Source: Escherichia coli (GTDB taxonomy: Bacteria; Pseudomonadota; Gammaproteobacteria; Enterobacterales; Enterobacteriaceae). Taken from it: a stretch of DNA of 64,000 nucleotides. The notes beneath the pieces were generated by a model. That model was not told where the DNA came from, did not search any database, and saw only the letters and a list, made by a program, of their open reading frames with translations. Positions 3,338-44,251 of this stretch are shown here, piece after piece (positions within the stretch are counted from its first letter, which is position 1; every line of letters starts with the position of its first letter). The stretch is taken from the NCBI RefSeq assembly GCF_003991155.1, contig NZ_CP031293.1; one strand, given 5' to 3'. The translations under genes and the position numbers were made by a program.

Positions 3338-4117
3338 TTAGTAGCTGCTGGCGCTCTTACCGTCGCCGTGGCCCAGAGCCTTCAGCAGGCTTGCCAGCAG
3401 GCTGGAAGCACCAAAGCGGTAGTGACGCGCATCAGCCCAGTCAGCACCGAACAGTTCATCGGCGATGGAGAGATATTTCTGCGCATCTTCCGCAGTACGC
3501 ACGCCGCCCGCCGGTTTGAAACCAACGGTTTTTTCTACGCCCATATCGCGGATCACTTCCATCATGATGCGCGCGCTTTCCGGCGTCGCATTCACAGCCA
3601 CTTTACCGGTAGAGGTTTTGATGAAGTCAGCACCCGCTTTGATGGAGATTTCAGACGCTTTACGGATCAGCGCTTCGTCTTTCAGTTCTCCGGTTTCAAT
3701 AATCACTTTCAGCAGGACGTTCGCCGCAGCGCAAGCCTCTTTACAGGCTTTCACCAGGTCAAAACCAACCTGCTCGTTACCCGCCATCAGCGCGCGGTAC
3801 GGGAACACCACGTCAACTTCATCGGCACCGTAGGCGATTGCCGCACGGGTTTCTGCCAGCGCGATTTCGATGTCGTCGTTACCGTGTGGGAAGTTAGTTA
3901 CCGTAGCGATACGGATTTCCGGGGTGCCCTGCTCTTTCAGAGTTTTGCGAGCAATCGGGATAAAGCGAGGATAGATACAGATAGCGGCGGTATTGCCGAC
4001 CGGAGTTTTGGCCTGATGACACAGTGCGATCACTTTCTCATCGGTGTCGTCGTCATTCAGGGTGGTCAGGTCCATCAATTTCAGTGCACGCAGGCTGCTT
4101 GCTTTCAGATCAGTCAT
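3338..4117 (-). CDS. deoC: Deoxyribose-phosphate aldolase
   Basis: ORF 3338..4141; internal Met gives a 259-aa product [24 protein letters not shown]...; first gene of the deo operon. Confidence 0.92.
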
Positions 4118-4161
4118 TTCATTCTCCTGGCTTGTCGCCAATAAAATTCACCTTGCGAGTT

Positions 4162-39061: not shown

Positions 39062-39092
39062 GGCCGCCATGTGGCGGCCTGAATTATTTTTT
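39062..39092. terminator. Bidirectional hairpin terminator between convergent yjiA and brnA
   Basis: Inverted repeat GGCCGCCA/TGGCGGCC followed by a T-run (TGAATTATTTTTT). Confidence 0.6.
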
Positions 39093-39386
39093 GTTCTGAT
39101 CGCGCAGCATCGCTTCACGTAAAATTGCGTTCAGGCGAGTTTGATAGCCTTTACCTGGTCGCTTCAACCATTCCATCACATCAGAATCAATACGCACCGA
39201 GGCCTGAGTTTTCAATGGCCGATAAAACTTACCGCGTTCTGCGTTAGACCATTGCTCATCGCTGGAAGGTGGGATATCACTGTAATCAATATCTTCGTCG
39301 GATTTATTCGCCAGCGCCTTCAGTTCGGCCTCATGCTGCACATCGAGTGTAGAGGAGGTCCCTCGTTTATGTTTAACCATGCTCAT
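39084..39386 (-). CDS. brnA: BrnA-like antitoxin (COG3514 / DUF4415 family)
   Basis: About 100 aa from an internal ATG of ORF 39084..39527; motifs IDYSDIP and VRIDSDVMEWLKRPGKGYQTRLNAILREAM typical of BrnA; start overlaps the upstream toxin gene. Confidence 0.75.
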   Translation of the reverse strand: MSMVKHKRGTSSTLDVQHEAELKALANKSDEDIDYSDIPPSSDEQWSNAERGKFYRPLKTQASVRIDSDVMEWLKRPGKGYQTRLNAILREAMLRDQNKK

Positions 39387-39687
39387 AGCGATTCCTCTCT
39401 TTACGATCTGCTTTTCGTGCACTGATGATTCGAATAATTTCATTTCCGCTTTCGAAACGGATGGTATGCGCAACCAGAATAACCACGATGCCGTAAACCA
39501 GGCCGATTGTCTGCCAGCGATACTCACCGTTTTCTATGCGTTCTTGCTGTGACAAATGTTGTGGATCATCAAACACTAACACCGCATCTTCAAAGCGGAT
39601 GCCATGTTTCACCCGATTACTTTTGGCCTTGTTTGCATCCCATTCAAACTCCATTGGCATAGTTGCCATCCCTAATTGTATATACAA
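39373..39687 (-). CDS. brnT: BrnT-like toxin (COG2929 ribonuclease, RelE-like fold)
   Basis: 104-aa ORF (true start may be internal); motifs EFEWDANKAKSNRVKHGIRFEDAVLVFDDP and IRIISARKA typical of BrnT; toxin-first order with 14-nt overlap onto brnA. Confidence 0.75.
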   Translation of the reverse strand: MYIQLGMATMPMEFEWDANKAKSNRVKHGIRFEDAVLVFDDPQHLSQQERIENGEYRWQTIGLVYGIVVILVAHTIRFESGNEIIRIISARKADRKERNRYEHG

Positions 39688-39856
39688 AAATGTATCTACA
39701 ATTATTCTGCAATTATAGCGTTGATGTTGGAAATAGCATCACGTTTTGGATAATCAACCATGAAATTGACAATGAGTGAGTTGGACTTGATTCATCCAAT
39801 AGAATTTCTCGCCTGACATGGCACACTAAACACCTCGCTGTCGTTAAGGGATTACC

Positions 39857-41023
39857 GTGAAAAACTACAAAGTCATTACCCCGCTTTTTCCTACCTATGC
39901 GCAAGTTAAGGCTATGATGAAAGCCGTCTCAGGCTATTCCCTGAAAGCGGTGCGCAATATGATTACTGCCATTCACGAGCAAACCGGTACGCCGCAAAAA
40001 CCCGTTGACTGGTCAGAACCCGACCTGTGGATCAGCGAGCGCTTAACGGGTGAAGATGCCGACATCGCCCGTCGTATTTGGGATACCGATAATCACATCT
40101 TGAACCCGCGCCACAGCTACGGCTGCTACTTATTCCTCAACTATCCCCAGTTTGAGCTGATGGAAAGCACACCAGATGATATCTGGCAGCCCACCTCGCG
40201 CGGGCAAAAATTCCTGCAAGATGACGAAAAAACGCTGCGTTCACTGGACGACCAGGAAGGCATTCTGCAACTGCTTGAGCTGCTGGCTGGCCGGGAAATG
40301 TCGCGCCGCGCCGATTTATTGCCGGAATGGCAGGCCTTTTTGCATCAGCATTCGAAATTCGCGTCAGCAAGTTCAGTGAAAAGCACGCTCTACTCCCGTC
40401 TCTATAACCTTATCGACCGTGACATGGTTAACCGTGAAGGCATGAGCTATCGCATCACCGATACCGGGCGCGCCTGGCTTGGAAAAGCGTTGCCAGCACG
40501 AAAAAGCGATCCGCGTAAAGAGCTGTTGGAAGCGGTAAAACGCTATAACGAACAGCAAAAAGAGCTGCTGCGCGAACAAATCAGCACGATGAACCCGTAC
40601 AAATTTGAGCAACTGGTTGGTCAATTACTGGAAGCAATGGGCTACGAGCAGGTCGAAGTGACCAAAGCCTCAGGCGACAAAGGTGTGGACGTGATTGGTC
40701 AGGTGCAGGTCGGCATCACCACTATTACCGAAGTGGTGCAGGTCAAAAGAATGCAGAACACTATCACTCGCCCGTATATCGACCAGTTGCGCGGGGCGTT
40801 GCCTTACCACAAAGCCATTCGCGGTACGCTCATCACCACCGGGAAATTTGCGGCGAAATGTGCAGAAGCGGCGCTCTTTCCGGGTGCCGCGCCCATTACG
40901 CTTATCGACGGCGATCGTTTACTGGAACTGTTAATCGAAAATAACGTCGGCATTCGCCGCAGCAATGCAGTGGAATTGCTGGATGTGGATTTGCAGTTGT
41001 TTGATGAGCTGGAGATGGATTAA
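39857..41023 (+). CDS. Mrr-family (type IV-like) restriction endonuclease with extended N-terminal region
   Basis: 388 aa with GTG start; C-terminal Mrr catalytic-like core (NPYKFEQLVGQLLEAMGY...SGDKGVDVIG...EVVQVKR) and an Mrr-like C-terminal tail; N-terminal half about 80 aa longer than K-12 Mrr (304 aa, from memory). Confidence 0.7.
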   Translation: MKNYKVITPLFPTYAQVKAMMKAVSGYSLKAVRNMITAIHEQTGTPQKPVDWSEPDLWISERLTGEDADIARRIWDTDNHILNPRHSYGCYLFLNYPQFELMESTPDDIWQPTSRGQKFLQDDEKTLRSLDDQEGILQLLELLAGREMSRRADLLPEWQAFLHQHSKFASASSVKSTLYSRLYNLIDRDMVNREGMSYRITDTGRAWLGKALPARKSDPRKELLEAVKRYNEQQKELLREQISTMNPYKFEQLVGQLLEAMGYEQVEVTKASGDKGVDVIGQVQVGITTITEVVQVKRMQNTITRPYIDQLRGALPYHKAIRGTLITTGKFAAKCAEAALFPGAAPITLIDGDRLLELLIENNVGIRRSNAVELLDVDLQLFDELEMD

Positions 41024-41067: not shown

Positions 41068-41244
41068 GTGGTCAAAGCACCAACTAAAAAAGCCAAAGCA
41101 AAGAAAAGCTCTGAAGAAACATTATGTGATACCACAAACCAATTTCGTGGTAGCGTTGAGTCCTCCGAATACAAGCACGTGGTGTTAAGCCTCGTGCTCC
41201 AGAAACTCATCAGCGATAAGTTTGAAGCACGCCGCAAAAAATGA
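41068..41244 (+). pseudogene. Type I R-M methyltransferase HsdM N-terminal fragment (about 58 codons, then stop)
   Basis: GTG start with GGAG RBS; translation ...LCDTTNQFRGSVESSEYKHVVLSLVLQKLISDKFEARRKK* resembles the HsdM N-terminal domain; ends at TGA within an A6 tract. Confidence 0.5.
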
Positions 41245-41903
41245 TTGCCGAAGCGTTAAAAGCTGATGGGATGGAAGAAATTTATTTTTCTGGCGACAAA
41301 AAAGCGGAATCTATCGATATTTTTGACGAAGATTATCTGGCGCGAATTAACAAGATCAAACTTCCAGCAACGAAGATCCTGTTATTACAAAAATTACTGG
41401 AAAAAGCGATCAGCGAGTTCAGGAAAGTGAACCAGTTGCAAGGGATTAACTTCACCCGCCGCTTCCAGGCGATTATAGATCGTTATAATGAGCGGCGAGA
41501 AGATGATGTACTCAACGGTGAAGAATTCGATACATTCAGTCAGGAAATGATTGATATTATCTATGATATTAAAACCGAAATGGGCACCTGGGCCGATTTA
41601 GGCATTGATATTGAAGAAAAAGCCTTTTTCGACATTCTTGCTCATATGCGCGATAAATATCAGTTCACCTATGACGATGAAAAAATGCTGTCACTGGCAA
41701 AAGAGATGAAAAGCGTTGTTGACAACACATCGAAATATCCTGACTGGAGTAAACGCGATGATATTAAAGCGAAACTGAAAGTTGAACTTATTCTGCTTCT
41801 ACACAAGCATAAGTTCCCGCCAGTAGCGAATGATGATGTTTATATGGGTGTGCTGGCACAGGCAGAGAATTTTAAAGAACATCATATGAGTGCTTTAAAT
41901 TAA
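41241..41903 (+). pseudogene. Type I restriction enzyme HsdR C-terminal fragment (DUF3387-like)
   Basis: 220-aa ORF starting at the ATGA overlap with the upstream fragment; motifs LGIDIEEKAFFDIL and ...LLLHKHKFPP... resemble the HsdR C-terminal domain as I recall it; no helicase/nuclease core present. Confidence 0.5.
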
Positions 41904-41910
41904 TTATGAA

Positions 41911-41936
41911 GGCCGGATACACTTTGTTATCCGGCC
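41911..41936 (+). terminator. Stem-loop (possible terminator) after the hsdR remnant
   Basis: 9-bp perfect inverted repeat GGCCGGATA/TATCCGGCC with 8-nt loop; no strong T-run. Confidence 0.4.
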
Positions 41937-42022
41937 ATTCTGAATTAACGTTAATTTCTCTTCCAGATCTTTCCAGTAACGCTTTTATTATTTTCTATTT
42001 TTAGCTGGACTTTCCCTGTATT

Positions 42023-42042
42023 TACTGATGATATATCCAGGT
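42023..42042. promoter_or_regulatory. LexA (SOS) box in the symE promoter: TACTGATGATATATCCAGGT
   Basis: CTG-N10-CAG with AT-rich centre, about 75 bp upstream of the symE start codon. Confidence 0.7.
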
Positions 42043-42059
42043 ATTTAGCGCGGTGCGAA

Positions 42060-42136
42060 TGTGCGCCAACACACCCGCACCGCTCATCACAATCCCTATT
42101 TCACGAGAATAGTAATCATGACTGACACGCATTCTA
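42060..42136 (-). ncRNA. symR: Probable SymR antisense sRNA (antitoxin of SymE), approximate coordinates
   Basis: Inferred from the known cis-antisense arrangement over the symE RBS and start codon; boundaries not determined from sequence. Confidence 0.35.
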
Positions 42137-42456
42137 TTGCACAACCGTTCGAAGCAGAAGTCTCCCCGGCAAATAACCGTCAATTAACCGTGAGTTATGC
42201 GAGCCGCTACCCGGATTACAGCCGTATTCCCGCCATCACCCTGAAAGGTCAGTGGCTGGAAACCGCCGGTTTTGCTACCGGCACGGCGGTAGATGTCAAA
42301 GTGATGGAAGGCTGTATTGTCCTCACCGCCCAACCACCCGCCGCCGAAGAGAGCGAACTGATGCAGTCACTGCGCCAGGTGTGCAAGCTGTCGGCGCGTA
42401 AACAAAGGCAGGTGCAGGATTTTATTGGGGTGATTAGTAGCAAAACGCCACGCTAA
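42118..42456 (+). CDS. symE: SOS-induced toxin SymE (AbrB-fold RNA-cleaving protein)
   Basis: ORF 42061..42456; product [48 protein letters not shown]... matches SymE. Confidence 0.88.
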
Positions 42457-42497
42457 GTTTCTCTCCCCTTCCCCATACGGAAAGGGGAATTGCCCCC

Positions 42498-42662
42498 TCA
42501 CTCCACATCTTCCCTGCGTAACCCAATATCCCTCAACCGCTCATCACTCATCTGCTGTAACACCCGCCGGGCCTGCATTTGCCGCCGCCAACGCCTCACT
42601 GCCTGCCAGAGTTGCACAAGTCCAATAAACGGTGCTTTAGCTTTGTTTTCGTGAAATTCCAT
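42498..42662 (-). CDS. yjiS: Small DUF1127 protein YjiS (54 aa)
   Basis: Hand-translated reverse-strand ORF MEFHENKAKAPFIGLVQLWQAVRRWRRQMQARRVLQQMSDERLRDIGLRREDVE* with GGAGG RBS; below the 60-aa cutoff of the ORF track. Confidence 0.75.
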   Translation of the reverse strand: MEFHENKAKAPFIGLVQLWQAVRRWRRQMQARRVLQQMSDERLRDIGLRREDVE

Positions 42663-42838
42663 CTGCTGCCTCCTCATCTTTCAGAGGCTTCATCATCCGC
42701 CTTCTGGCAGCTCACAATACAGATGCAAATATTAGTTTTATTTAACATACAGACAGGTTAAAACAGCATCTGCATCCGGTTTTTTAGCCTCATCTGTACC
42801 GGTTTTTCCCTCTGTATGGTCCAAATAAGGAATACAGC

Positions 42839-44251
42839 ATGACGCGTTATCAACATCTGGCGACTCTGCTTGCCGAGCGGATTGAGCAAGGGCTGTATCG
42901 TCACGGGGAGAAATTGCCGTCGGTGCGCAGCTTGAGTCAGGAGCACGGCGTCAGTATCAGCACCGTGCAGCAGGCGTACCAGACGCTGGAGACGATGAAG
43001 CTCATCACTCCGCAGCCGCGTTCGGGTTATTTTGTCGCACAACGGAAAGCCCAGCCGCCAGTACCGCCGATGACGCGTCCGGTGCAGCGCCCGGTGGAAA
43101 TTACCCAGTGGGATCAGGTGCTGGATATGCTGGAGGCGCATAGCGACAGTTCCATTGTTCCGTTAAGTAAAAGCACGCCGGATGTCGAAACGCCCAGCCT
43201 GAAACCGCTGTGGCGGGAGCTAAGCCGGGTGGTGCAGCATAATCTGCAAACCGTTCTCGGTTATGACTTGTTAGCCGGTCAGCGAGTGTTGCGAGAGCAG
43301 ATTGCCCGCCTGATGCTCGACAGCGGCTCGGTGGTCACCGCCGATGACATCATCATTACTAGCGGCTGCCATAACTCGATGTCGCTAGCGTTAATGGCGG
43401 TGTGTAAACCGGGCGATATTGTCGCGGTCGAATCCCCCTGTTATTACGGTTCGATGCAGATGCTGCGCGGCATGGGCGTGAAAGTGATTGAAATCCCCAC
43501 CGATCCAGAAACAGGCATCAGCGTTGAAGCGCTGGAACTGGCGCTGGAGCAGTGGCCGATTAAAGGCATCATTCTGGTGCCAAACTGTAATAATCCGCTG
43601 GGATTTATTATGCCGGACGCGCGCAAACGGGCCGTTCTCTCTCTCGCTCAGCGTCATGATATTGTGATTTTTGAAGATGATGTCTACGGCGAACTGGCAA
43701 CGGAGTATCCGCGCCCGCGGACCATTCATTCCTGGGATATCGACGGGCGAGTGCTGTTGTGCAGCTCGTTCAGTAAAAGTATTGCTCCAGGCCTGCGCGT
43801 GGGTTGGGTCGCACCGGGGCGTTATCACGATAAACTGATGCATATGAAATACGCCATCAGCAGCTTTAATGTGCCGTCCACGCAAATGGCGGCGGCAACG
43901 TTTGTGCTGGAAGGTCACTATCATCGCCATATCCGGCGGATGCGGCAGATCTATCAGCGCAATTTGGCGCTTTATACCTGCTGGATACGGGAATATTTTC
44001 CCTGCGAAATCTGTATTACGCGCCCGAAAGGCGGATTTTTACTGTGGATAGAATTGCCTGAACAGGTCGATATGGTTTGCGTTGCGCGGCAGCTATACCG
44101 CATAAAAATCCAGGTGGCGGCAGGCTCGATTTTCTCAGCTTCCGGCAAATACCGTAATTGTCTGCGCATCAACTGCGCTTTGCCGCTCAGCGAAACCTAT
44201 CGCGAAGCACTGAAGCAAATTGGCGAAGCCGTGTATCGGGCAATGGAATGA
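42839..44251 (+). CDS. yjiR: MocR/GabR-type transcriptional regulator (GntR HTH fused to PLP aminotransferase-like domain)
   Basis: 470 aa; N-terminal GntR HTH (LPSVRSLSQEHGVSISTVQQAYQTLE) and large aminotransferase class I-like C-terminal domain. Confidence 0.85.
   Translation: MTRYQHLATLLAERIEQGLYRHGEKLPSVRSLSQEHGVSISTVQQAYQTLETMKLITPQPRSGYFVAQRKAQPPVPPMTRPVQRPVEITQWDQVLDMLEAHSDSSIVPLSKSTPDVETPSLKPLWRELSRVVQHNLQTVLGYDLLAGQRVLREQIARLMLDSGSVVTADDIIITSGCHNSMSLALMAVCKPGDIVAVESPCYYGSMQMLRGMGVKVIEIPTDPETGISVEALELALEQWPIKGIILVPNCNNPLGFIMPDARKRAVLSLAQRHDIVIFEDDVYGELATEYPRPRTIHSWDIDGRVLLCSSFSKSIAPGLRVGWVAPGRYHDKLMHMKYAISSFNVPSTQMAAATFVLEGHYHRHIRRMRQIYQRNLALYTCWIREYFPCEICITRPKGGFLLWIELPEQVDMVCVARQLYRIKIQVAAGSIFSASGKYRNCLRINCALPLSETYREALKQIGEAVYRAME

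Follow-up and report, generated by a model that had tools for sequence, protein, structure and literature searches.

What occupies positions 42023 to 42662 of the 64,000-nucleotide stretch of Escherichia coli DNA considered here (contig NZ_CP031293.1, RefSeq assembly GCF_003991155.1; hereafter the window), and is it an intact regulatory locus or what remains of one? An earlier note, made from the sequence and its open reading frames (ORFs) without database searches, had read the region as symE, the gene of an SOS-induced toxin, preceded by a LexA-box-like CTG-N10-CAG site. It expected the antisense RNA SymR over the symE start and placed a small gene of the DUF1127 family, yjiS, convergent to symE. 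All coordinates are those of the whole 64-kb window, of which 41700–43100 was read together with the ORF listing. The positions assigned in the note to the LexA-like site, symE, the yjiS ORF, and a plus-strand ORF overlapping the latter are each found in the sequence.

The locus very probably forms the right-hand end of the immigration control region of E. coli, which extends from yjiA to yjiS, in a shrunken form that carries a canonical symE/SymR module followed by a convergent yjiS. Each sequence element is in place, undamaged, in the correct arrangement, and conserved. The regulatory mechanism that they would support is extrapolated from experiments in K-12 and Salmonella. The closest described system is the SOS-regulated type I toxin–antitoxin locus symE (yjiW)/SymR (RyjC) of K-12 (PMC1891008), with which the window shares the gene as well as the position and the 77-nt length of the antisense RNA. 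Alignment to K-12, a check that the earlier note had proposed, gives approximately 90% identity for SymE over residues 1–106, 19 of 20 matching bases for the LexA box, and 51 of 54 identical residues for YjiS.

The annotation used for comparison is the RefSeq record of E. coli strain 2016C-3878 (NZ_CP029747.1), which matches the window at 100% in a megablast search of complete E. coli genomes; prevalence counts refer to 5,426 such genomes. RefSeq annotates symE, yjiS, and yjiR at the same positions as the window ORFs, and symE and yjiS are therefore not new genes. SymR carries no annotation in this record or in the W3110 record produced by the Prokaryotic Genome Annotation Pipeline. Thus, symE with its LexA site, SymR, and yjiS are all three previously described E. 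coli genes, and only the gap in SymR annotation and a caution concerning ORF length cut-offs are new. The practical value of the analysis lies in annotation, as SymR can be added at 42123–42047 on the minus strand.

symE and its LexA box

The symE coding sequence opens with the ATG at 42118 on the plus strand, closes with a stop codon whose last base is 42456, and encodes a protein of 112 residues (WP_000132633.1). It contains no frameshift or internal stop. The product scores 75 bits against the Pfam family PF08845 (SymE_toxin; cut-off 29) and 221.8 bits against the NCBIfam equivalog NF010128 (endoribonuclease SymE; cut-off 132), with residues 1–110 covered by the latter. The gene is retained, as had been claimed, given the intact ORF and two family scores beyond their cut-offs. 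Codons 1–106 contain 43 columns that vary among 10 E. coli alleles, and these are split 9:8:26 over the first, second, and third codon positions, which is the pattern expected of purifying selection. Of 27 homologous loci in other genera, 26 retain an intact ORF of 104–120 residues. Within E. coli, symE is an accessory gene, its region being present in approximately 2,860 of the complete genomes. A PDB sequence search (E ≤ 10) returned no relative of SymE with a solved structure.

One locus departs from this picture. In Pseudocitrobacter vendiensis (retrieved locus L066, 2455–2784), the symE homologue is broken after 30 codons while tblastn similarity runs to the end of the gene. It is likely a pseudogene, upstream of which a SymR-like sequence and a LexA box remain.

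The LexA (SOS) box, TACTGATGATATATCCAGGT, lies at 42023–42042, with CTG at 42025–42027 and CAG at 42038–42040, 76–95 nt upstream of the symE ATG. Of all 20-mers in the 64 kb, it comes closest to the LexA consensus TACTG(TA)5CAGTA (PMC6590174), matching 14 of 20 bases, a number that no other one reaches. The box occupies the same place as the K-12 symE box, TACTGATGATATATACAGGT, from which it differs at one base of 20, an A to C change next to CAG. The C allele is present in five of the nine other E. coli sampled and is thus the commoner one in the sample. A C directly 5′ of CAG is common in functional LexA boxes, such as those of uvrB, recN, and dinI. The K-12 symE (yjiW) promoter is bound by LexA and induced by DNA damage, as stated by Kawano et al. 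2007 citing Fernandez de Henestrosa 2000 (PMC1891008), and its box has a heterology index of 7.9 (PMC11228462).

Conservation across genera was assessed in loci collected by a pattern search, with one genome per species, that took the SymR 3′ hairpin, rather than the LexA box, as its key. Of 70 pattern matches, approximately 40 were ignored as GC-rich and lacking a nearby symE (Dyella, Burkholderia, Streptomyces, and others). The search yielded 30 loci with a symE homologue, 29 of them with sufficient upstream sequence. CTG-N10-CAG is present 94–99 nt upstream of the symE ATG in 27 of these 29, spanning about a dozen enterobacterial genera that include Escherichia, Salmonella, Citrobacter, Pseudocitrobacter, Pantoea, Klebsiella, Raoultella, Kluyvera, Enterobacter, Entomohabitans, and Erwinia. 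The 10-nt spacer between CTG and CAG diverges freely among these loci, whose SymE proteins are as little as 37% identical to that of the window. The left half-site is mutated in two loci, those of Kosakonia cowanii and Kluyvera sichuanensis. On the basis of K-12 orthology and this cross-genus conservation, rather than of motif rarity, the site at 42023–42042 is taken as a predicted LexA operator, in agreement with the earlier note.

The box begins approximately 11–12 nt downstream of CTGGACTT, a sequence that is nearly invariant in 26 symE upstream regions from many genera. Within it, TGGACT (42006–42011, plus strand) is the probable −35 element of the symE promoter, as judged from the 17–18 nt that separate it from the A/T-rich core of the box downstream. 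The LexA box would then overlie the spacer and the −10 region, with the −35, the −10, and the transcription start all being inferred placements.

SymR and the predicted control of symE

SymR, an antisense RNA of 77 nt, is placed by homology on the minus strand at 42047–42123, with its 5′ end at 42123. The sequence matches Rfam RF01809 with 88.9 bits (gathering score 61, E 2e-17) over model positions 1–77 of 77, and the gathering score is reached in all 15 other-genus loci tested. SymR is complementary to essentially all of the symE 5′ untranslated region, the Shine-Dalgarno (SD) sequence, the start codon at 42118–42120, and the first 3 nt of codon 2. Its 3′ end is placed 5 nt from the LexA box and its 5′ end 3 nt beyond the symE start codon, the latter as in K-12. 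The RNA is predicted to fold into two hairpins (−37.6 kcal/mol, z −5.1). The RNAalifold consensus of 26 homologues contains 29 pairs, 7 of which show compensatory changes, although the search pattern by which the loci were gathered had already dictated some of the 3′ hairpin. It had been claimed that SymR would be antisense to the symE start but that its ends could not be set from sequence. The first half of this claim is upheld by the full-length match to RF01809; the second is not, since homology allows the ends to be placed.

The predicted −10 hexamer of the symR promoter, TAGAAT (42131–42136, minus strand), lies inside symE codons 5–7 and is identical to that of K-12. In K-12, SymR was lost when Kawano et al. 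mutated this site from CATTCT to CACTCC (PMC1891008). The promoter region is near-invariant in 10 E. coli, with three single-strain differences and an unchanged hexamer.

SymR differs from its K-12 counterpart at approximately 10 of 77 positions, most of which fall within the loop of the 5′ hairpin, antisense to the SD sequence. This loop (42098–42106) is a variable spot in its own right, as six of its nine columns vary among 10 E. coli, compared to roughly 0.1–0.27 per column elsewhere. A small number of loop alleles recur across genera, suggesting an old polymorphism or an exchange of the module. A different kind of variation is found in E. coli strain S4 (retrieved locus L005, 451–484, equivalent to window 42058–42075), in which the tip of the 3′ hairpin is inverted (GUGCGCCAACAC versus GUGUUGGCGCAC). 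This palindrome flip leaves the stem of the hairpin intact. Weak Rfam matches to archaeal C/D-box snoRNAs at 42660–42701 (16–21 bits versus gathering scores of 45–54) were dismissed as chance.

By analogy with K-12, LexA bound at 42023–42042 would overlap the core of the symE promoter and hold transcription off until DNA damage leads to RecA-stimulated self-cleavage of LexA, freeing the promoter. SymR would be produced constitutively from a promoter inside symE codons 5–14 and would pair with the entire 5′ untranslated region, the ribosome-binding site, and the start codon of the symE message, blocking its translation. Any SymE produced would be cleared by the Lon protease, which degrades SymE (PMC1891008; PMC4147584). 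SymE that accumulates nonetheless may stop growth, either by RNA cleavage, as first thought, or by non-specific DNA binding and nucleoid compaction via a MazE/AbrB-like domain, as proposed more recently. The occurrence of the LexA box and of the SymR footprint across genera confirms that three-layer control of symE is ancient in Enterobacterales, as earlier work had implied.

Several observations weigh against the reading of the locus as a canonical, SOS-controlled symE/SymR module. The first concern the LexA box. Bare CTG-N10-CAG occurs 21 times in the window versus 13.4 ± 4.0 expected, a count that 4 of 100 shuffles reach. Motif counting was dropped as evidence in the absence of a significant excess and was replaced by consensus ranking and cross-genus conservation. 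The consensus match of 14 of 20 is itself only suggestive when taken alone, as 11.5% of shuffled windows, or about 1 in 9, yield an equally good site with an intact core. Together with a recent transcriptome in which azidothymidine (AZT) induced symE barely, by 1.5-fold (PMC11228462), these figures would fit a chance palindrome rather than a LexA operator. This explanation is most improbable, however, considering that the site is the best match of the window, that its K-12 orthologue combines a heterology index of 7.9 with LexA-dependent expression, and that CTG and CAG keep a fixed distance in 27 of 29 loci despite the variable spacer. The preferred assignment thus remains a LexA operator.

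A consensus scan of 41850–42900 called neither an intrinsic terminator nor a canonical sigma-70 promoter for any of symE, symR, and yjiS; the promoter positions given here consequently rest on homology and inference. The SD region of symE (42104–42108, plus strand, located in the SymR 5′ hairpin loop) reads CGAGA, whereas that of K-12 reads GGAGA. The predicted anti-SD duplex has an energy of −3.0 kcal/mol, the weakest of nine alleles, compared to −5.6 to −6.6 kcal/mol in the eight other E. coli alleles. Lastly, the biochemical activity of SymE is contested in the literature. Over-production of SymE inhibits growth in K-12 (PMC1891008), an effect first ascribed to RNA cleavage. A 2022 study (Thompson), as far as it is described in PMC11894785, attributes to SymE no RNase activity but rather non-specific DNA binding and nucleoid compaction. 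Of the description "SOS-induced toxin" in the earlier note, the LexA-bound, damage-induced promoter is accordingly backed by the K-12 literature, while "toxin" is a historical label and the RNase activity is in dispute.

It could be argued from the weak SD duplex that symE is a decaying remnant, with its flanking cassettes deleted, its ribosome-binding site degraded, its C-terminus replaced, and no functional SymE made. Also pointing in this direction are the reduction of the neighboring type I restriction–modification (R-M) operon to two pseudogene fragments by a 5.5-kb deletion, the replacement of the AGKQKVA ending of K-12 SymE by SSKTPR in the last 6–7 residues, and the lack of symE in nearly half of the complete E. 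coli genomes. Decay is nevertheless very unlikely. The ORF is intact with 221.8 bits on the equivalog model, the substitutions are biased toward third codon positions, and conservation extends to the LexA box, the symR promoter sequence, and SymR. The GAGAA form of the SD sequence recurs beside intact symE in several genera and was therefore rejected as a sign of decay; it is found in Pseudocitrobacter, Citrobacter braakii, Kluyvera ascorbata, and E. albertii. The SSKTPR tail, moreover, is common to all five other strains sampled with the same symE–yjiS junction, and presumably to many of the approximately 916 genomes that share it, so that it is no private lesion. An intact symE is hence the reading retained in the following.

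yjiS and the overlapping reading frames

Downstream of symE, the yjiS coding sequence occupies 42498–42662 on the minus strand and encodes a protein of 54 residues (WP_000394263.1). Residues 18–54 match the Pfam family PF06568 (DUF1127) with 46.6 bits (cut-off 23.3) over model positions 1–37 of 37. The reverse-strand ORF with a DUF1127 signature described in the earlier note, whose 54-residue peptide is reproduced exactly, is thus yjiS. Its absence from the supplied ORF track is an artefact of the 60-residue cut-off of that track; RefSeq does list the gene. A cut-off of this kind conceals a real and functionally studied protein and admits a spurious antisense ORF in its place.

YjiS is arginine-rich, as in K-12, and contains the sequence RRWRRQMQARR as well as DIGL at residues 45–48, a conserved DUF1127 motif named in PMC11707872. 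It has the same length as the YjiS proteins described in E. coli (PMC12501420) and Salmonella (PMC11707872), and it differs from K-12 YjiS by the substitutions R7K, T31A, and K44R. The gene is divergent from yjiR in both strains. In contrast, its 3′ neighbor is symE in the window and the yjiT pseudogene in K-12. The ribosome-binding site is a GAGGAGG at 42669–42675 (minus strand), 6 nt upstream of the ATG at 42662 and invariant in 11 E. coli.

The small ORF is conserved in related genomes, being annotated as yjiS in thousands of them; among the complete E. coli genomes, the yjiS region is present in about 3,680–4,160. In the DUF1127 core (codons 32–54), seven of the eight sites that vary among 11 E. 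coli are third positions, and the protein is invariant save for R44K. By this measure, yjiS is under purifying selection. The N-terminal half (codons 1–31, 42570–42662) is, on the other hand, unusually variable in E. coli, with RRWRRQMQA, RSWWLKKQT, and RTWWLKKQT as alternative sequences. Such clustered differences may stem from recombination of divergent alleles, or else from selection that is relaxed or diversifying.

Two longer reading frames compete with the 54-residue one in the interval 42498–42761. The first is a 60-residue ORF with a TTG start on the plus strand (42579–42761), antisense to yjiS. The second is a 59-residue form of yjiS itself, which a mechanical ORF definition begins at an upstream ATG at 42677. 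Both frames are open in the window, and none of the 11 E. coli alleles has a stop in the plus-strand frame. The probability that either of them, rather than the 54-residue YjiS, is the real gene is nonetheless close to nil. The plus-strand ORF has no Pfam family match and loses its TTG start in 2 of the 11 alleles. Its substitutions are distributed 15:7:12 over its own codon positions 1:2:3, so that they peak at position 1 with no third-position excess. It was rejected as a gene and is judged a non-coding antisense shadow of yjiS, consistent with the earlier view that it is spurious. The 59-residue form was rejected on two grounds: an in-frame TAG separates the two ATG codons in K-12, and GAGGAGG overlaps the upstream ATG. 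The 54-residue start is preferred because of the placement of GAGGAGG 6 nt upstream and the K-12 TAG. In Salmonella, YjiS has been detected as a 54-residue protein by ribosome profiling and western blot (PMC11707872).

The gene product is a 54-residue, arginine-rich DUF1127 protein that is independent of the symE/SymR module. E. coli YjiS binds the sensor kinase PhoR and restrains expression of the phosphate-uptake genes pst (PMC12501420), whereas the Salmonella protein is membrane-associated and interacts with SsrA (PMC11707872). Among small DUF1127 proteins, the literature describes binding to a sensor kinase (PhoR or SsrA) or to RNA (PMC12501420, PMC11707872, PMC8034643).

The divergent intergenic region between yjiS and yjiR (42717–42807) is almost invariant in 11 E. 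coli. It contains a direct repeat, CATCTGCATCCGGTTTT and CATCTGTACCGGTTTTT, spaced by 24 nt, together with an inverted partner, ATACAGATGC. YjiR is a MocR-type regulator composed of a GntR helix-turn-helix and an aminotransferase domain. It is plausible that these repeats constitute a candidate operator of YjiR, which might control yjiS.

The symE–yjiS junction and the immigration control region

The immigration control region has been placed between yjiS and yjiA (PMC3874165). The window shares with the published description a framework of yjiA, symE, and yjiS–yjiR with variable defence cassettes in between. Its own version is minimal: approximately 3.4 kb in length, it lacks mcrBC and an intact type I system and comprises BrnT/BrnA, an Mrr-like endonuclease, fragments of hsdM and hsdR, and symER.

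The convergent symE and yjiS genes are separated by 41 nt. In K-12, they are 7.5 kb apart, with mcrB, mcrC, and the yjiV/yjiT pseudogenes in the interval, and mcrB is the downstream neighbor of symE. The two genes adjoin here because the mcrBC-yjiV-yjiT block is absent; they adjoin as a matter of cassette content and do not form a functional unit. Approximately 916 of the 5,426 complete genomes (~17%) have this direct junction. Homology to K-12 ends approximately 21 nt before the symE stop and returns near the yjiS stop. As it ends inside symE, the last symE codons are part of the variable segment. The tail reads SSKTPR in direct-junction strains, among them the window with its SymE of 112 residues, and AGKQKVA where mcrBC or a GmrSD gene lies downstream, as in K-12 with its SymE of 113 residues. 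The left boundary of the variable restriction-cassette slot accordingly falls inside the symE coding sequence, which produces the two tail types. The segment 42436–42497, comprising the last six to seven symE codons and the 41-nt spacer, is specific to direct-junction strains.

The spacer contains an inverted repeat, TCCCCTTCCC and GGAAAGGGGA (42464–42488), which is the only candidate 3′-end structure for both convergent genes. Its predicted folding energy, −13.4 kcal/mol for the plus strand (z −2.0), reaches −18.6 kcal/mol for the minus strand (z −2.9). The hairpin carries no U-tract on either strand, and the terminator scan returned nothing. Since the hairpin lacks a U-tract, SOS-induced symE transcription might read into yjiS antisense, or collide with yjiS transcription, across the 41-nt spacer. 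This is a long shot. If it were true, YjiS levels and, via PhoR, phosphate uptake would respond to DNA damage; K-12 could not have revealed such a coupling because 7.5 kb separates the genes there.

Upstream of symE, at 41068–41903, a type I R-M operon, hsdM-hsdS-hsdR, which is intact in strain 746, has been lost through a deletion of approximately 5.5 kb. The deletion junction (41239–41251) exhibits 13 nt of microhomology, as measured against strain 746. An N-terminal fragment of hsdM and a 220-codon C-terminal fragment of hsdR are left, and the downstream symE/SymR is untouched. Farther upstream and next to yjiA, 39084–41023 encodes the BrnT/BrnA toxin–antitoxin pair and a 388-residue restriction endonuclease with an Mrr_cat domain, which together occupy the place of mrr in K-12.

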